64,000 nt of DNA from positions 70,387,282 through 70,451,281 of the forward strand of contig JARDVH010000106.1 in NCBI GenBank assembly GCA_030324005.1, written 5' to 3'. Each line of letters starts with the position of its first letter. The stretch's first letter is position 1. Shown here one piece after another: positions 3,685 to 55,630 of this stretch. The translations under genes were made by a program, and so were the position numbers. A model generated the notes under the pieces. That model was not told where the DNA came from, searched no databases, and worked only from the letters and a program-made list of their open reading frames with translations. The stretch is from Negaprion brevirostris (lineage: Eukaryota).

Positions 3685-3762
3685 GTGAGTCTCCACCTTC
3701 AACACTTTTCTTGTTCCCTCGCTCTTTTATTTTCTCTCTCACTCTTGCTTCCTATTCCACAG

Positions 3763-3975
3763 CTCTACGAGTTTCTGTGGATCCAGGGATGGAAGCATGA
3801 AAATGCTACTGAGCCTGAGGCCTACTGCCTGCGGAGCCCTGTGTGGCTGGCCAAGGCTGTGTCACCAGCCTTCGAGCTCAAGGACTGGTCCTCGACTGAG
3901 TACTCAACCTGGACGGAGAGCCGGTGGAAGGGAATCAGTGCCCGCATCTTCCTGGTGGCCAGCAGGAAGCTGGAG
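3763..3975 (+). CDS. NCSTN: Nicastrin, penultimate coding exon
   Basis: TTCCACAG acceptor, GTGGGT donor at 3976; LYEFLWIQG...LAKAVSPAFELKDWSSTEYSTWTESRWKGISARIFLVASRKLE contains the nicastrin signature SPAFEL..WSSTEYSTWTESRW. Confidence 0.97.
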
Positions 3976-4184: not shown

Positions 4185-4525
4185 GGGGGAGGCAACGGCC
4201 CAGTGGTATTATGGCTAGATTTATTAATCTTGGAACTCAGCTGATGTCTGGGGACCTACTGAATCCCGCCACAGCAGATGGTGGAATTTGAATTCAATTT
4301 TAAAAATCTGGAATTAAGAATCCACTGATGATTGCCAGAAAAACTTATCTGGCTCATTAATGTCCTTCAGTGAAGGAAATGTGCTGTTCTTACCTGATCT
4401 GGCCTACATGTGACTCCAGAGACACAGCAATGTGGTTGACTCTCAACTGCGATCGGGCAACTGGGGATGGGCAATAAATTCTGACCAACCAGCAATGCAC
4501 ATGTCCCACGACTGAATAAAAAAAA
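4185..4525 (+). mobile_element. tRNA-headed SINE with L2-like tail, in the NCSTN intron
   Basis: Head GGCCCAGTGGTATTATGGCTAG, body GGTGGAATTTGAATTCAA...GGCAATAAAT, tail GAATAAAAAAAA; same family as 15945-16290. Confidence 0.7.
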
Positions 4526-4563
4526 GAGGGCGTCTCTCTCTTTCTCTCTCTCGTTCTCCTCAG

Positions 4564-4640
4564 ATCATCACGCTGCTGACAGGGATCGGGGTCCTCTTGG
4601 TGTCGCTCATCCTCATCTACTTTGTCAACGCTAAGGCTAA
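4564..4640 (+). CDS. NCSTN: Nicastrin last exon (transmembrane helix), truncated by N-gap
   Basis: CTCCTCAG acceptor; IITLLTGIGVLLVSLILIYFVNAKA matches human [25 protein letters not shown]; the stop codon is lost in gap 4641-4740. Confidence 0.95.
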
Positions 4641-23216: not shown

Positions 23217-23640
23217 AACCCATTTATAGTAACTTCAGCACCAAACAGGGCTAAGTTCCAGTCAATTTTACCTCTTAATTGATACGATGAAATGTTTTTA
23301 CAAAAAGTTTCATTTTTCAGGCAAAAGCGATGTTTAAAGTGCTAAATCATGGTCTTCTCAATAGTAATAGTAGGTTTGGTAAGCTTGTGCAATTAAAAGG
23401 GGTGTGTGCAGTCATATACATGTGCATCCAACTTCAATTTTAGCTCCGGAAAAAGTCATTAATACGCTGTTCTTTGAAATGGCAAACTCCTGATTTCAAC
23501 TAAAATATTAATCAAGTCAAGCTTCACCACACAAACCAGGTGCATATCTAATAGACAAGAGGAGAAACAAGTTAAGAGTCGCTCTAATCTATGCACTTAA
23601 TTTCCAAAGCAGCAGCAAACTAAAGTCGTGACTCAGGATG

Positions 23641-23724
23641 ATGTGGATATGCCGACGTTGGACTGGGGTAAACACCAGGTTAAAATCGGTTGGACTTAAA
23701 CCTGGTGTTGTCAGACTTTTTACT
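23641..23724. mobile_element. Minimal (84-bp) inverted-arm Penelope-derived insertion
   Basis: 13-bp TSD GTGACTCAGGATG at 23628-23640 and 23725-23737; head ATGTGGATATGCCGACGTTGGACTGGGGTAAACAC. Confidence 0.85.
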
Positions 23725-25457
23725 GTGACTCAGGATGGCAGTCAATATCTGAAATGGGGGATCTAAAGTAGAAAGGGATTGACAATCATTTGAAAGATAG
23801 AAAACTGAAGAAATGTAGAAAATAGGAGTAGACCATTCAGCCCTTCGAGGATCAACCGTGATCATGGTGAATATTATCATGGTTGATCCTCTGTCTTAAT
23901 ACCATACTCCTATGCTCTCTCCACACCCATTTACACCTTTAGATGACATGTTTGCTGGCAAAGTACAGACAGCCTTTTACTTTCCAGCTTTGTAGCACAG
24001 AACATAAATCAACATTCCTACAGCTCCCTGCTGAAACAGCTAACAAAAAAAAGTGAAGGTCCAAAATTATCGTTCGAGTTACTGCACAACATAACAAGCA
24101 TCTGGTCAAAAGAACAATGCTATCAGCTAGGCCCTGGAGAAAGCAAACCTACACAACCCATGAATAATCATTAAAACTGATAGCACTGAGCTCACATACA
24201 GCCTTGCTCAAAATATTTGCATCATAACTATGTTTTGCAGACTACTATTTGTTCAAGTTCCTTGCAATATAGAAGACTGATAAGAACATTGCCCAACTGT
24301 TTCTGACCCAATAGCTGTACAAGTCTCAAATGAGTACAAAGGATTCATTTAAGATTAAATGAATAAAATATAGGACATAGGACATAAAAGATTACTTTTC
24401 TCATCCAACTGTTCCTTTCCATTTTCTAAACAGAACATTGTCTATCATAAGATTCCATTACCTGATAGAGATGATTACTGAAGCAAAAATGTCCAACATG
24501 ACAAAACACTAGCTCTGACAAAATTTCAAAACGATGATTACAGGCATTATTCAACTCTGATCTGCATACTTTCCACAGAAAGAAATTTCTGAGCCAAATT
24601 TTAATACAGGAGTTTACATTTATCCTTATCTTTAACTCTGCTCTTAATTTAAGATGATGTGGGTATGCCGGCGTTGGACTGGCGTAAACACAGTAAAAAG
24701 TCTGACAACACCAGGTTTTAGTCCAACCGNNNNNNNNNNNNNNNNNNNNNNNNNNNNNNNNNNNNNNNNNNNNNNNNNNNNNNNNNNNNNNNNNNNNNNN
24801 NNNNNNNNNNNNNNNNNNNNNNNNNNNNNTTTATGATTCTCTTTTGAGGAAGTGGAGGAGGGTTCACCTAAGACCATTACGCTTCAGCAAGTGCTCAGAA
24901 GACAACGGCAGCTGACAGTGGGGTCCAGCTAAGCTGTTGTGGCCTTCACCATCCTGACATTCGTGGCCAGGGTTTGGGAGATCAGGTGGGTGACGTGTAA
25001 ATATGGGTGCTTCAAAACACAATAAATGCCTTGTGATGAGCAGCAGTTGTTTACAAGTTGTGATGTGTGAGTGTGCAACTTCCAGCATCCAGTACAGCTT
25101 GGTCAGGGCAAATGGCACCTCTCTGTGCAACGCCCCATCTTGAGTTTTCACCTGGTGGTGTAGGCTGAGAGAGGAAACCCCAAAGTTAGTTTACAAATTC
25201 AGGAGACGGCTGATACAAATGGAGAAAGGCGAATGCAACTTCGAGGGATAGTTTGGAATGCTCTCTGGCCACGAGACAGAATGCCGAGTTCAAAAGTTTC
25301 CTGGTGAAGGGTAAAGACGTTGCAGTAACAACAACAATCTTGTTTTTGTACTGAATTTACAAAGACTCCAATCCCAAGAATAGGCCAGTAAACTGCACTC
25401 ATTTTAATGGATTAACTGACCATTTCACACAAGGGCATAAAGGCAAACTGATGAGTC

Positions 25458-27185: not shown

Positions 27186-27312
27186 GTCCACTCACATTGT
27201 CAGCCACTTCAGGTCTTGAGCAGCAGGTTAGGTGTAAGGATTCGCATTCTAATCAGTAATCTCTAAACTGTCTGTGCTTTATATGCTCTGTCTGAGGCCA
27301 GAACTCTCCATT

Positions 27313-27350
27313 CACCTGACGAAGGGACTAACCCCGAAAGCTTGAGAGTC
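27313..27350 (+). ncRNA. Minimal type I hammerhead ribozyme motif in a Penelope arm
   Basis: CAC-CTGACGA-A-GGGA CTAA CCCC-GAAA-GC-TT; core intact, one mismatch in stem II. Confidence 0.6.
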
Positions 27351-27669
27351 TATTATCAAATAAATCGGTTGGACTAAAACCTGTTGTCAGACTTTTTACT
27401 TAATTTAACAGTCATTGTAACCAGGAAGGAAAGGGGACAGTCTCAACAACTCTTTGCCAATAATGATTAAGCAGCATCAAATTTCAATGTCTAGGTTATC
27501 AAGGAAGTTGGCAGGCACAAGCTGCCCTGTGCAATCCTTCCACTTCCATTCAGACATCAGCACATGTTGCTGTTTTTGCAACATTGATATAATGTTGATA
27601 TAGGACACTGATATAGGTGTCAGTTGAAGGCTGCTGAAGGAAGGTGAAAAAAATTCAAGGTGGAAAAAC

Positions 27670-33328: not shown

Positions 33329-34118
33329 AACAGGCCATACCTGAGTACCCTTCAAGAGTTACAAATCCACAATACTTTAAAACGATAGGCCACAGTGAGG
33401 AGGATGGAGGGGAAAGACATTCACTATTACAGTAAATTTTGAAATAAGTGAAACAAAAATCCACAGTGCGTACATTTTTAAAAGGTGTTTTCGTTTCATA
33501 ACTGCCTTCTAGAGCAAATGGAAGGAGCGGCCAACTACTTTGTGCGACTCTCTCTGATAATTCGCGCGCAAACCTGCTGGTAACGAAGCTCAATCATACA
33601 GAACACTGCACAGGCAACAGTTGCCATGGGGAACAATCTCTGCAACTCTGTGGTTAGCCAGAGCACTTAGCTTAGTTATTGCTGACATCAGGCCTCCCCC
33701 ATTCATAAGCTCCTGTCTGAAAATGCAGAAAATAGCAGACACTGACTGGCAATGGGAGACTAAACTGATCCAAGTCCAATTAAGTTTGAGAAATCACAGA
33801 TCTGAACTGGCAAAGCAAAACATTTGCCACACAATTGAAGTACTTTCTGTTAATTTTAATTATTGGCATATCTTCTCCATGAGAATATGAATGAAAAGGG
33901 TGTTGGAAACATTGCCAAATTTTCCTCCTCTTTTGCTCTCTCTCCAATTTGCCTGGTCAGTTACAACTACAGGAAATCGACAATGTAACACCTCATTGTA
34001 AAGTAGGCTGATTTGGGATCTTCTATTGTGGAGATGCCAGCATTGGACTGGGGTAAACACAGTAAGAAGTCTCACAACACCAGGTGAAAGTCCAACAGGT
34101 TTATTTGGTAGTACAAAC

Positions 34119-34153
34119 CACTAGTTTTCAGAGCACTGCCCCTTCATCAGGTG
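34119..34153 (-). ncRNA. Minimal hammerhead ribozyme motif
   Basis: Reverse complement: CAC-CTGATGA-A-GGGGC AGT GCTCT-GAAA-AC-TA-GTG; stem I is CAC/GTG. Confidence 0.6.
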
Positions 34154-34559
34154 AGTGGGAGTTCTATTCACAAACAGGGCATATAAAGACACAAACTCAA
34201 TTNNNNNNNNNNNNNNNNNNNNNNNNNNNNNNNNNNNNNNNNNNNNNNNNNNNNNNNNNNNNNNNNNNNNNNNNNNNNNNNNNNNNNNNNNNNNNNNNNN
34301 NNAGTTCTATTCACAAACAGGGCATATAAAGACACAAACTCAATTTACAAAATAATGGTTGGAATGCGAGCCTTTACAGATAATCAAGTCTTAAAAGGTA
34401 CAGATAATGTGAGTGGAGAGAGTGTTAAGCACAGGTTAAAGAGGTGTTATTGTCTCCAGCCAGGACAGTTAGTGAGATTTTGCAAGCTTAGGCAAGTCGT
34501 GGGGATTACAGATAGTGTGACACGAACCCAAGATCTGGTTGAAGCAAAGATCTCCCGTT

Positions 34560-34594
34560 CACCTAACTAAGGGGCAGCGCTCTGAAAGCTAGTG
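34560..34594 (+). ncRNA. Degenerate hammerhead ribozyme motif
   Basis: CAC-CTAACTA (decayed CTGACGA)-A-GGGGC AGC GCTCT-GAAA-GC-TA-GTG. Confidence 0.45.
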
Positions 34595-35658
34595 GCTTGT
34601 GCTGCCAAATAAACCTGTTGGACTTTAACCTGGTGTTGTGAGACTTCTTATTGGGATACTTTGTCATGTTCAAAACATTAAAAATTTGCAGCAGGACACG
34701 TTCTGTTTCCTCTCCTACCAAAGTGCTATTTTAGCCAAAATATAAAAAGTAAAAGCTCTGACCTAGACAGTTTCTTTCAATGTTAGCACTGACCAGAGAC
34801 CTGCAACATGAAACCTAATTGCAGATTTATTGCAGATTATGGTAGGAATCCAAAAAGATTTTACAATCACCTTGAACAGTAATTACGATCAATTATATTT
34901 AAAAATCACAAAGCCTTATGATGGTTTACTGGTTATGGTACTGGGTTTTATTTGGTATTACAGTTATCAAAATCCCAAGTTACAAAAGTAAATTCAATAA
35001 AGCTGCTTAATTTGCTAGCTATCATCAGATAAAAGAGACTATGAAAGCTGCCAAGATGCTAGAAAAAACAACTGGTTCACTAATGTCCAACAGGAAAGGA
35101 AACTGCTGTTACCATCTGGTCAAGTGAGTCAAAACAGAGCACTAGTGACTGACTCAATGCCCTTACAGTAAGTAACTCAGGGTGGGCCATAAGTGCATTG
35201 CTCATAACCCAAGAGCAAAAAGGTTAAGTAACAAGAGTGACAGATCAAAAAGTCCTAGAAACTTCAGTCAACACTAAAATAACAGAAATGTCCAGATTCA
35301 AAAGTAGCTTGAATATTGCAATATTAACCCCAAACTATTCAAATCATAATCTATACCTACAAAAATGAAACAGAGTGCTGCTGTATTTGATTGTCCACAA
35401 CATCACACATTTAGTGGTAGAAAAGCATTACTTTTCCCAAAATCAACAATCGCACTTATAGAGGGCCTTTAACGTAGTAGAATATCTCAATGTATCTGAC
35501 AGATCTTGAGACAGTTGTCAGGCTGGAATAAGTAAAAGATGAGCAAGGGTAATGCCATGGAGGTATTTGAAAACAAGGATGAGAATTTTAAAAATTGAAG
35601 CTTTTACCAGGACGCTTGGGACTTGCTTCTGAACAAGACTCCACTGTTATTCAATGAG

Positions 35659-36330
35659 AAACACTGAAAAAAAAACAATGCAACTGCAGGTAATAGAAAA
35701 ATAATAAATATCACCTTTCAACTTGGACTGGTGTACTGAAGCGATTGGGTAATTTAAAAAAAACACCTTTGAAGAAAAATCAAGTGAAATGTTAACAAAA
35801 CAAATCCAGTTACTTCTGATGTTCTGCACCATGTCCTTCCTTAGGTGGTTTAAAAGCCAGAAGCCAGAGACACACAAATGAGGTTAGAAATTCCCCACTG
35901 CTACAGTCAGTACTTGCCAAAGATTAAATTTATGATTATTAACTCCTTAATGAAACTATTAATGGAACTGTAATTACAAGTGAGCACAAAGGAACAAACT
36001 TCCACCCTGCATGTTTCAATGGATCATGGGAATGGTGCCAGTGGAGTCAACGACTTAAATTTATATCGCACAGTTATTCGGATAGATAGCTAAACGCTGA
36101 ATCAAAGATGTAGGTTTTAAAGAGCATTGTAAAAGCAGAGATTCTTAGAGATTTAGGGAGGAAATTTCAAAGCTCAGCGCCAAGGCAGCAAAAACACTGA
36201 AAAAACCAATGCAACCACGGCTAACAGAAAAATAATAAATATCACCTTTCACTGGTGTACTGGAGGCGATTGGGTAATCAAAAAAAACTGCCTTTGAAGA
36301 AAAATCAAGTGAAATGTTAACAAAACAAAT
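35659..36330 (+). repeat. ~140-bp dispersed direct duplication (35659-35804 and 36192-36330)
   Basis: Both copies contain AGAAAAATAATAAATATCACCTTTCA...CTGGTGTACTG...GCGATTGGGTAAT...CCTTTGAAGAAAAATCAAGTGAAATGTTAACAAAACAAAT. Confidence 0.9.
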
Positions 36331-37885: not shown

Positions 37886-38155
37886 CTCAAAGATTTGCAA
37901 GGCTGGAGGAATCAAGGCAGAATGCTATAGAAAGTCAGATGGAAGTATCATTCCAGGGTTATTTTATTGCTCATTTCCTTTGACCCAAAACAATAATGCT
38001 TTAATTTTGATAGTTAATGAAGAGACCCGAAGTCAGTCTTTACTCAGGTTTGGATTTAGTCACAAAGTGAAACGTTAGAAATGTCTTGTTTCTAACTCCA
38101 CAACCCACCCCATGTCCCCAAGTCTTTTGTTTTGTAAAAAAAGACTTGGGTTTGC

Positions 38156-38430
38156 TCAGGTGCCAAAACCGTAGGATGCGGCCCTGGAGTTTCAGAGCAT
38201 ACAACATGTCTATAGTGGTGACCATCTTGCATTTGGCATGCTCAGCATTGGTGACCACATCACTGGTCACATTCCTCAGGTCTCCTCGTAGATCAAGCCA
38301 GAGATCTGCTTGACACCGACATGGTGACCTACACATCAGATAGCTGGTTTGGTGATCACAAAAGCACTTTCCCGTGACATTTTGTTCTACCTTCTTCCAG
38401 CCCTTTGCCTCCTTTTCCTCTGTTAGCCAT
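38156..38430 (-). pseudogene. H4: Histone H4 pseudogene
   Basis: Reverse complement reads MANRGKGGKGLEEGRTKCHGKVL...ITKPAI...GVKQISGLIYEET...NVTSDVVTNAEHAKCKMVTTIDMLYALKLQGRIL.GFGT*, with frameshifts and two internal deletions relative to canonical H4. Confidence 0.93.
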
Positions 38431-39704
38431 GCCACTTTTGTCAAACAATTATGCCATGAGTGCCCCTCTTCTGCATACACTTAACCTTAATTTATACAAT
38501 TAACAAATATCTGACAAGTGCCCCCTTTTACAAGGAGGCCATCATTAAAACAACCGGCTCAAAACAAAATGCTTATAGGTTCAGCCTTTCAGCTTTATGG
38601 AGATACACCAATTAATTTCCCTTAGAAAACCTCAGTGTACATTTAAATGCAATATATTCTTTAATCAAATTATTTGCAGAAAGGCCTTACTTCAAGGTTT
38701 GTTCTTTATTGATGACAAATTGCAACCCTGTGATTGAAAAGAGTTAAATATTTTCCAGTTGTTTACCACAAAAATTCAGTAAACACTTCAGCAATCCCAA
38801 CTATTCTTTTCAAATATAAAGGCAAGTCTGCCAAATAATTAGGAAAGCAGGTCCACAAACATGGGTGCCTCATGTTAAAGAATAATCACTTACCAACTAC
38901 ACTAAGTTACAGTAGAACTTAGTTGAATTTTTATCAGCACTATATTGATCAAGAATCTATTTCATCACAAAATTACCATATTTTAAATGGCAACTTGCTC
39001 CAGTTCCAATGAAAAGTTACCTTAAAATATTAACCCTTTCTTCACAGATATGGCTTGACCCATTTCCAGCACTTTGCTTTTAATTTGAATTTCCCATCTT
39101 TATTTTATGTTTTAGATAGATTCACTAAATTAACTGATCTCCACATTCTGATGCCTTTCCAATGACAAAATCTAAAATTCAAACTTCAAACCTTGTAAAA
39201 GACTGAAGCTAGTTGAGAGACAAGGGTCCACGCTCTGCCAATACAAACTGGACATAAAATTGGTTCTGCAATAAATTCTTTACCCTGGCACAGTTTTCCA
39301 ATCACCCTGAAATGTAAGTCAGATTATTTGTTTTCCTTCTGCATTTACTGGTGGTGGGAGCATACGTGGTGTCACGTTCTGCAACTGTTCAGTAGATGTC
39401 ATCAAGAAATTTCTGACGTGCACATTCATGTAATTTTACTGCCTACCGTGAAGACATTGAATCACATCAGACAACCCAAACAGTGGGCTGATAAAGTAGC
39501 CTTTATCGTTGTTCATCTTGTTGCTGCAACTAATAATACTATAATGATGACAGTAATCCCTGCTTTTTCGTATTTATCAATACCATGTTATTTTTACACT
39601 TACAATCAAATACATCTTTGCCTTGGGAATCACATCTGAATAGCAGTTTCCAAAAACAAAGGCAAAATACGACTCAAACAAAATTCTCCAAAATCTTAAC
39701 TCTA

Positions 39705-45877: not shown

Positions 45878-46351
45878 TGATGTGGGTATGCCTGCGTTGG
45901 ACTGGGGTAAACACAGTAAAAAGTCTGACACCACCAGGTTTTGACAAGTCTGACAACACCACGCTGAACAGAGACTGATAGCCAAGTTCTGCACACATGA
46001 GGACGGTCTCAACAGGGATCTTGGGTTCATGTCGCACTATCTGTANNNNNNNNNNNNNNNNNNNNNNNNNNNNNNNNNNNNNNNNNNNNNNNNNNNNNNN
46101 NNNNNNNNNNNNNNNNNNNNNNNNNNNNNNNNNNNNNNNNNNNNNATTGTCAGCCACTTCAGGTCTTGAACAGCAGGTTAGGTGTAAGGATTCGCATTCT
46201 AATCAGTAATCTCTAAACTGTCAGTGCTTTATACGCTCTGTCTGAGGCCAGAACTCTCCATTCACCTGACGAAGGGGCTAACCCCGAACGCTTGAGAGTT
46301 TATTATCAAATAAATCGGTTGGACTAAAACCTGGTGTTGTCAGACTTTTTA
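45878..46351 (+). mobile_element. 5'-truncated Penelope 3' end with inverted head
   Basis: 14-bp TSD CTAGCTTACATCCA at 45864-45877 and 46352-46365; 45963-46045 encodes AEQRLIAKFCTHEDGLNRDLGFMSHYL (GIY-YIG C-terminus with GLN motif); 46146-46351 is nearly identical to 27196-27398. Confidence 0.88.
46263..46300 (+). ncRNA. Minimal hammerhead ribozyme motif
   Basis: CAC-CTGACGA-A-GGGG CTAA CCCC-GAAC (for GAAA)-GC-TT. Confidence 0.55.
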
Positions 46352-47319
46352 CTAGCTTACATCCACACAGCTCTACTTTCAGTCATTATGTCTTATATGC
46401 CTCTGAGTAAACTTTCCATCAGCAGTATTTTAACACCACGTTTCAAAATCATTGAGCAGTAACAATTGTGTTGTCTACTATTGCAGTTGTACATCACATA
46501 TTTTTCAAAGGCTGACATTGTATTTTCAGCGACTGACTACTACTGCTGCTCGGAGAGAAACATTGCCTCCGTAGGGTTTACCTCAATGACAAGTCATCAC
46601 AATCTAAACACAGTGCCTACCGAAATATCTGCAGTTGCATACAATGCAAGCTTGGATGTAAAACACTTGACTGACATGCGTCTGCTTTCTGATTCACCAT
46701 TTACAGACCTCAACAATAAGATTCTACAATGTTTCTGGAATCTCTTTATCAATAGGCCCCAGTCTATTGATTCATCACCAATGCTCTGTGCTCAACAAGT
46801 CAACACTGCTCACAGAAAACGTCCTCACACAGGATCACTACATCTGGTGCAACCAAATAAAAAATGGTGCAGCCTCCTATGAAAACAAGTGCAAATGAGA
46901 GGCAGCAAAAACACAAGGAGAGAAAACCCTGAGCTACCAGCTTGCCCAAATTTCAATAATCTACAACATCCTGCCCTATTTTGCAACAGAACCTCCTATG
47001 AGCAGATCGGCCTTAGCAGTCACCTACATAGCCAGCAGAAAACAACCAAACATTCCATACGATCAGCAAGATAAATTTCACATCGAAGGGCAAACAAAAC
47101 AGGCCAGGTTTATACTGTTATTTCCTCTCTGTTCGAAAACCGATCGGCTAAGAGTTGACTTTTTTTGTAGCATTGGACAACTTTAAGACATGGGTAAAAT
47201 TCAGTTCGACAAATTCCTGCTAGGGCAGTGGTTTCATTTCATGTCCACATAAATGTGGCTTTTGAATAAATCGCACATTGTATACAACGAATACAAAGTA
47301 CAACGTTAAATTCAACATC

Positions 47320-49935: not shown

Positions 49936-50462
49936 TAGTTACCACCTTCTTCCTCCTCCTGAAGCAATTTCTCTCTTCAATATTATATTGGTTGCTTTAA
50001 TGTGCACTTCTGTGGAATTTCCAAGGGATCTCGCATATTCTACTATCTGAACAGAAGGTATCAACTGACTTCAATCAGAACTTGCATTTATATCACACCT
50101 TTAATGTAGTAAACAATTCAAAAGCACTTGACAGGAAAATTCTCTCAAAATTTGGTAGGTTATTAGAGCAGATGACCAAAAGCTTGGTCAAAAAGATGAG
50201 TTTTAAAGAGCATCTTGAAGGCAGAGGGGGCGGGAAATTTGGAGATTTAAGAGAAGGAACTTGAATGGTTGGGGGCAGGAGGAGAGGGAGGGGTGAGGCA
50301 TTGAGTCAGCTAGAATACAAAAGGACTATTATTGCAAATCATCTGCCTCCTGACTGAAGGAGTTCATCTGTGCCTCAGATAGCTATAGGAATAAGTTGTA
50401 ATTTCTGGAAAGGAATGCAAACTTACCGTCATCCTCCTTGACAATCTGGTAGGAAATAGCCC

Positions 50463-50545
50463 AGTAAGAAGTCTCACAACACCAGGTTTGTGTTGTGAGA
50501 CTTCGTACTGTGTTTACCCCAGTTCAACGCCGGCATCTCTACATC
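50463..50545. mobile_element. Minimal (83-bp) hairpin Penelope-derived insertion
   Basis: AGTAAGAAGTCTCACAACAC-loop-GTGTTGTGAGACTTCGTACT plus tail; near-TSD AGGAAATAGCCC (50451-50462)/AGGAAATAACCC (50546-50557). Confidence 0.85.
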
Positions 50546-51432: not shown

Positions 51433-51762
51433 GAATGGTACGGCACAGTAGCAGAGTGGTTAGCACTGCTGCTTCACAACTCCAGTGACTTAGGTCACTG
51501 TCTATGTGGAGTTTGCGCATTCTTCTCGTGTCTGCGCGGGTTTCCTCCGTGTGCTCTGGTTTCCTCCCACAGTCCAAAAATGTGGTTAGGTTGATTGGCC
51601 ATGTTAAAATTGCCCCTTAGTGTTCTGAGATGCGTAGGTTAGAGGGAATAGTGGGTAAAATATGTGGGGATATGGGGATAGGGCCTGGGTGGGATTGTGG
51701 TCGGTGCAAACTCGATGGGCCGAATGGCCTCTCTCTGTACTGTAGGGTTTCTGCGTTTCTAA
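51433..51762 (+). mobile_element. HE1/V-SINE-like SINE
   Basis: GTGGTTAGCACTGCTGC head, V-domain, tail GGGCCGAATGGCCTC...CTGTAGGG. Confidence 0.85.
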
Positions 51763-55339: not shown

Positions 55340-55630
55340 AAGTTTATTTGTCACAAGTAGGCTTACATTAATACTGCAATGAAGTTACTGTGAAAATTCC
55401 CGAGTCACCACACTCCTTGTTCTGGTGCACCAAGGGAGAATTTAGCATATCCAATCCACCTAACCAACACATCTCTAGACAGTGGGAGGACTGTGGGCAA
55501 CCAGAGGAAACCCCACAGACATGGGGAGAAATGTGCAAACTCCACACAGGCAGGGACCCAAGCCAGGAATCAAACCCAGGTCCCTGGCGCTGTGAGGTAG
55601 TAATGCTAACCATTGTGCTATCATGCCATC
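55340..55630 (-). mobile_element. HE1/V-SINE-like SINE
   Basis: Reverse complement of the 17480-17756 family (TGGTTAGCATTACTACCTCACAGCGCCAGGGACCTGGGTTTGATTCC). Confidence 0.82.

Follow-up and report, generated by a model that had tools for sequence, protein, structure and literature searches.

Does an insertion that bears a hammerhead motif on each of its strands give rise to self-cleaving RNA, or do its ribozymes only travel with the sequence that holds them? This question is raised by a fold-back element near 34 kb of the 64-kb stretch of DNA analysed here (the window), which a preliminary description took for a Penelope-derived, ambisense and retrozyme-like unit. We are confident that its two arms and the remnant between them derive from an endonuclease-positive (EN+) Penelope-like element (PLE), likely of Neptune type, which inserted as a 5'-truncated copy and was likely dead on arrival, that the fold-back shape likely arose from the insertion reaction, and that both hammerheads are passenger sequence of the pseudo-LTR (pLTR), predicted not to cleave.

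Anatomy of the 34-kb element

The inverted arms, at 34060-34165 and 34548-34653, are 88% complementary over 106 nt; arms with the motif had been described at ~90 bp, and were borne out at this greater length. The left arm represents the sense strand of the element. On the minus strand it consists of a 36-nt 3' tail (34027-34062), found in this arm only and with an end at 34027 that is common to other copies, and of a pLTR (34063-34165) with an AATAAA at 34105-34100, 16 nt past the predicted hammerhead cut. These are joined on the same strand by the 3'UTR of the element (34166-34508), which is split by a 100-N assembly gap (34203-34302) and which, across the closed gap, is colinear with a sister copy at 46183-46353, and also with 46146-46262. 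The final ~13 codons of the PLE open reading frame follow (34506-34546, minus strand), ending in DLGFVSHYL and a stop, with the 5'-truncation point near 34546. The right arm is an inverted pLTR without a tail (34548-34650, plus strand), with an AATAAA at 34608. A probable, decayed target-site duplication (TSD) encloses the whole: the left copy (34012-34021, plus) matches the right copy (34651-34661, plus) at 10 of 11 aligned positions with one gap, a score equalled by 2.5% of 3000 random 25-mer pairs (P ~0.025).

The gap is flanked by an identical stretch of 43 nt (34160-34202 and 34303-34345). We infer that this direct repeat is a contig overlap, and reading it as a biological repeat was rejected. 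The two arms therefore sit on two contigs, and with the overlap closed the element is ~481 bp long.

The Penelope origin proposed for the fold-back is supported by its pLTR, tail and TSD anatomy, which matches the published PLE unit: a pLTR with an adjoining inverted truncated copy at the 5' end, a tail on one end only, a TSD and a hammerhead within the pLTR are all present. An inverted 5'-truncated copy with a 30-40-bp tail is described as typical of PLEs (Craig 2021, PMC8557442), and inverted pLTRs, tail and TSD have been shown for them (Arkhipova 2013, PMC3846280). The canonical EN+ unit (Penelope/Poseidon, Neptune, Nematis; PMC3846280, PMC8557442) is alike in its 5'-truncated body with an adjoining inverted truncated pLTR, in a tail of that length at one end only (36 nt here), in its TSD and pLTR hammerhead and in the trouble that it causes in short-read assembly. 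The 34-kb element differs in being very short and in having neither a direct-repeat pLTR nor a partial tandem, and TSDs in the window measure 11-14 nt, compared with 8-10 in the rotifer cases. Moreover, dual minimal hammerheads on opposite strands, 100-700 bp apart, have been tied to truncated PLEs (Cervera 2014, PMC4209133); the fold-back layout with opposite-strand hammerheads is thus already known. A literature search, with Repbase and Dfam outside its scope, found no paper on this particular family.

The remaining codons give a hint of the clade. Eight of the nine residues of DLGFVSHYL are identical to the end of a 30-aa peptide encoded at 45954-46043, and this peptide (E..LIA..T.E.GLNR) can be aligned visually to the C-terminal end of Neptune GIY-YIG endonucleases (Craig 2021, Fig. 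S2). Its end, GLNR, is by eye closer to Neptune than to the SLNR of Poseidon, the type to which the PAc element of Anolis carolinensis belongs (Frangieh et al. 2024, PMC11167929). With so very short a query, Pfam returned no match and the ESM Atlas an uninformative best value of 0.77; RT and GIY-YIG profiles detected nothing, and there was no full open reading frame in the copies examined. A Neptune-type clade is likely, judged from this by-eye match over 9 + 30 codons.

The hammerhead motifs and their family

The motif sequences on both strands read as first described, with an intact core on the minus strand and a decayed one on the plus strand. The minus copy (34153-34119) reads CAC-CTGATGA-A-stem II-GAAA-AC-TA-GTG and represents a minimal type I hammerhead with a predicted cut after 34122, which lies 26 nt after an ATG within the core. 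The plus copy (34560-34594) reads CAC-CTAACTA-A-stem II-GAAA-GC-TA-GTG; its core, CUAACUA, has G5 changed to A and G8 to U. Calling the minus copy intact is correct for the CUGANGA/GAAA core, but not for stem III, which is AACT instead of the AGCT palindrome. The palindrome that would form the dimer helix (AGCU) is thus kept only in the core-dead plus copy, and the self-duplex is weaker for AACU of the minus copy, at -2.4 kcal/mol, than for the palindrome, at -4.5 kcal/mol. In both copies stem II has 5 bp with a G10.1-U11.1 wobble.

G5 is essential for hammerhead cleavage. The general acid is proposed to be G8 (PMC6155905), whose mutation abolishes cleavage of the PLE of the anole (PMC11167929), and G-C is conserved at 10.1-11.1 in minimal hammerheads (Cervera 2014, PMC4209133). 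Judged by their letters, each hammerhead of the 34-kb copy has lost its function, in complementary ways, and both are unlikely to cut. The arms differ from each other at 13 of 106 sites, compared with 2-3% for orthologous flanks (see below), which indicates that they are old and unselected; with 5 of 35 sites changed in the hammerhead versus 4 of 56 downstream, these small counts give no hint of selection on the ribozyme.

A descriptor of the minimal type I hammerhead found a single match in 64 kb, the minus copy, compared with a mean of 0.005 matches in 200 dinucleotide-type shuffles; the motif is therefore not a product of chance. Rfam reported no hammerhead, whether in 33500-35200 at E<=10 or across the 64-kb window at the gathering score, which is unsurprising for a motif that lacks a real stem III.

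To place the element in its family, we compared four of 24 listed public runs, using DNA-type contigs only, aligned to a 2.4-kb stretch around it; run X1 is possibly the window's own source and so not independent. No RNA-type run was listed as containing the sequence, and six runs that may be RNA had shares of 0.07-0.09, which carries no information on expression. Between 91,709 and 176,259 contigs per run fell on this stretch, within which other repeats also lie. The summed contig depth was 6x10^4 to 6x10^6 over the element versus 6-18 over the unique flanks. At the tail end, 34027, 1577-2147 contigs per run leave the alignment, representing other copies that stop there. The PLE family is very abundant, although summed depth does not equal copy number. 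The commonest loose-end letters before 34595, which stem from contigs that do not align to the decayed plus copy, spell CTGATGA...GAAA in all four runs (agreement 0.59-0.63), and a C at plus-strand position 34125, which restores the AGCT palindrome, makes up 92-95% of the family depth. Family conservation of CUGANGA/GAAA, set beforehand as a test that could refute the preliminary description, was thus found in four of four runs. Assignment to the minimal, dimer-type hammerhead class is likewise supported, the family having retained both core and palindrome. Metagenome contigs and viral contigs each gave 0 matches to a 27-nt pLTR pattern.

Further evidence comes from a sister subfamily in the window, at 27196-27400 (+) and 46146-46353 (+), ~73% identical. 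The former is a tail-less pLTR with a core-intact hammerhead at 27313. Stem I and stem II differ in sequence around the same core, and the compensated changes in these stems favour a real ribozyme in the families of origin. Compared with the minimal type I hammerheads of metazoan PLEs (PMC4209133), the motif is alike in its unpaired base after position 9, its 4-bp stem I, the palindrome at 15.2-16.2, which has an insert of 2 nt, and its occurrence as opposite-strand pairs; it differs in that both copies at 34 kb are damaged and in a 5-bp stem II with G10.1-U11.1 for G-C. Sharks are not named in the available portion of that paper.

A further point of comparison, PAc, is alike in a cut 26 nt after the core ATG (PMC11167929). 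In both elements the tail is bounded by two fixed ends; counted from the ATG, those of the 34-kb element lie at 85 and 121 nt, and the main site of PAc lies at 111-118. The PAc reading frame starts at the core ATG, whereas the frame from the core ATG of the 34-kb element is closed at the cut site, so that the start of its reading frame must differ from that of the anole element.

Origin of the fold-back shape

Six loci of the PLE family were found in the window: four fold-backs, including the 34-kb element, and two single ends. One single end is the tail-less pLTR at 27196-27400; the other is a tail with a pLTR end that enters an assembly gap (24656-24729, minus strand). Two siblings are mini fold-backs, one at 23640-23727 consisting of a tail and an inverted pLTR end (TSD 13/13) with no hammerhead left, and one in the opposite orientation at 50459-50545 (TSD 10/11), also with no hammerhead. 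The third, at 45879-46353, belongs to the sister subfamily (TSD 14/14), has the end of the reading frame on the plus strand and a hammerhead with a GAAC core at 46263, and contains a 100-N gap. All three have a tail on one end only, the same build as the 34-kb element. Given that the copies at 23.6 and 50.5 kb are shorter than 90 bp and devoid of a hammerhead, the fold-back shape is independent of the ribozyme. The TSDs of these two copies are clear, with ends that overlap the last bases of the element by 1-3 nt, and the copies are good material with which to locate the pair of RT start sites.

We propose that the RT-endonuclease would nick both target strands ~11-14 nt apart, and that cDNA would be primed at each nick from the two known start sites of the RNA 3' region, namely the tail end (121 nt past the core ATG) and a site 36 nt inward of it (85 nt past the ATG). 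The two cDNAs would stop early and be joined head-to-head, leaving a long arm that has the tail and, inverted, a short arm that lacks it. For the autonomous parent, we would expect the hammerhead to work as a dimer within transcripts of tandem arrays; in the 34-kb copy it would have decayed neutrally, and read-through would lock it in a duplex of ~100 bp. The protein of the anole element cuts and extends both target strands in vitro, with RT starting at two internal sites, the stretch between which is the tail (PMC11167929). In the portions of the literature available, we found no demonstration of the twin-priming step for inverted PLE ends. Such a fold-back is what PLE insertion ordinarily yields and not a special design.

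The alternative that survives best concerns the same class of element but derives the inverted arm from self-priming on an antisense template and not from priming at two nicks; we regard it as possible, though unlikely. Self-priming is the route favoured for inverted arms by Arkhipova (2013, PMC3846280), where it is proposed for PLE head-to-head junctions with palindromes, and at 34 kb two instances of a 7-nt word, AAGATCT, are present close to the junction. However, no palindrome crosses this junction, and both ends stop at fixed positions separated by 36 nt, in keeping with the pair of RT start sites seen in vitro. The choice changes only the inferred step and leaves the verdict on the element the same: under the two-nick route and the self-priming route alike, hammerheads on both strands are a by-product.

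Could the short fold-backs instead form a non-autonomous family, transcribed and re-inserted whole in trans by the PLE protein? Very many short copies exist, and in rotifers pLTRs in cis suffice for mobilisation in trans (PMC3846280). A replicating unit would repeat one junction, but all four fold-backs of the window differ in internal junction and arm length. In the public contigs, joints from left arm to right arm fall at varied points (13 of 15 among the joints listed, with 1859 further joints). We therefore consider a mobile mini-unit very improbable.

It is most unlikely that the fold-back is an artefact in which the assembly joined the ends of two copies across the gap. The gap does lie inside a repeat, and no contig spans the whole element in any of the four runs, so that the single-insertion reading rests on the TSD, on the colinear interior and on shared derived letters, both arms having two stem II letters unlike the commonest letters of the family. 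All three argue against an artefact, as do the two gap-free siblings of the same build. The window has 14 N gaps, and three 100-N gaps lie in or at PLE copies (24730, 34203, 46046), as expected from short-read assembly.

The same runs bear on the age of the insertion. The flanks of three other samples are 2-3% different from the window. Among the contigs listed, flank contigs enter the element at the left end in X2, X6 and X8 and at the right end in X2 and X6, with none listed at the right junction in X8; one of the junction contigs listed (X6, left end) has at least 31 letters on each side. No empty pre-insertion site was seen in the four runs. Since flank contigs of other samples run into the element, the insertion is likely shared by them and older than their split.

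Transcripts of the element and its genomic setting

We now consider what RNA such a structure could yield. Since the arms stand head-to-head, a read-through transcript of either strand makes the antisense arm first. The arms can pair at 99 of 106 positions in plus-strand RNA and at 97 of 106 in minus-strand RNA when G-U pairs are included, with longest uninterrupted runs of 30 and 23, respectively. Once the gap is closed, the read-through transcript is predicted to fold so that the distant arm engages 86% of the ribozyme bases on the plus strand and 92% on the minus strand. The cost of imposing stems I and II of the hammerhead is 48-56 kcal/mol when this arm is present, compared with 9-14 when it is absent; absolute folding energies are rough, the difference with and without the arm being informative. 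An undecayed younger copy would pair even better, so that in these models an ancestral self-cleaving hairpin is also disfavoured. A transcript initiated between the two arms would avoid the duplex, but would contain a single minimal ribozyme, a form that is not cleaved in vitro (PMC4209133).

The ambisense, retrozyme-like reading, in which a transcript of either strand cleaves itself and yields processed, double-stranded or circular RNA, can draw on one motif per strand, on the conserved family core and on the pairing of the arms, yet it retains next to no probability, because each strand has a single ribozyme preceded by its antisense arm, the forced fold is so costly, G5 and G8 are missing from the plus core and the stem III palindrome from the minus copy, no tandem array was found at 32-37 kb, and single minimal hammerheads were uncleaved in vitro, with low cleavage of dimers (PMC4209133). 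Circles require two ribozymes in tandem on the same strand (PMC7229834; bioRxiv 2026.07.22.740005), and a second core-intact motif was found nowhere on the minus strand of the 64-kb window. Animal non-LTR retrozymes (PMC7229834; Li et al., bioRxiv 2026.07.22.740005) are alike in being non-coding and in their PLE-derived type I hammerhead, whereas they form head-to-tail tandems with at least two hammerheads per strand and make circles, the 34-kb element being a single head-to-head insertion. The claims of the preliminary description on function were not supported for the most part: the self-cleaving hairpin is disfavoured by an antisense arm that is made first on both strands and is predicted to trap the ribozyme; the retrozyme-like architecture lacks a tandem array and a same-strand partner; and, of the proposed RNA products, a potential for dsRNA stands, generic to any inverted repeat, while circular RNA does not. 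Dimer cleavage of hammerheads has reportedly been described by Lunse et al. in 2017.

Taken alone, the 34-kb element is one old, decayed copy among very many and has little significance. Collectively, the short copies are nevertheless of use: their clear TSDs and paired fixed ends provide a large natural record of how PLEs invert their ends, which could separate two nicks and two RT starts from antisense self-priming. More speculatively, the many head-to-head PLE ends of this lineage could be a built-in source of hairpin RNA, in which read-through locks hammerheads in antisense arms and feeds Dicer or ADAR, insertion seeds silencing of the active family, and some short fold-backs may move in trans as units; we give this idea little credence. 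Detection of small RNAs derived from the hairpins of these copies would connect the insertion mechanism with self-silencing.

The suggestion that the element might process host intronic RNA found no support, as Pfam found no exon nearby and the only host exons identified lie ~29 kb away. At the curated cut-off, Pfam gave 0 matches in all 142 open reading frames of at least 70 aa in the whole window and in all 130 of 48-69 aa at 20-50 kb (130 of the window's 312); these 272 yielded two sub-threshold matches only, and short exons would escape such a search. The last nicastrin exons lie at 3700-3975 (+), where phmmer aligned human nicastrin residues 598-669 (E=6e-25), and a likely transmembrane exon of the gene was recognised by eye at ~4550-4640 (+). 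The region 38040-38480 (-), which we take to be a decayed histone H4-like fragment and probably a pseudogene, showed weak histone-fold Pfam matches to CENP-S and CENP-T_C (E 0.2-0.3).

Other repeats were observed in the window. A direct duplication with ~530-bp spacing (35659-35805 and 36192-36330) is 88-100% identical in three pieces. Two inverted repeat pairs, 423-573 with 4276-4437 and 51486-51622 with 55428-55565, are 72-74% identical and are likely independent copies of other repeats.
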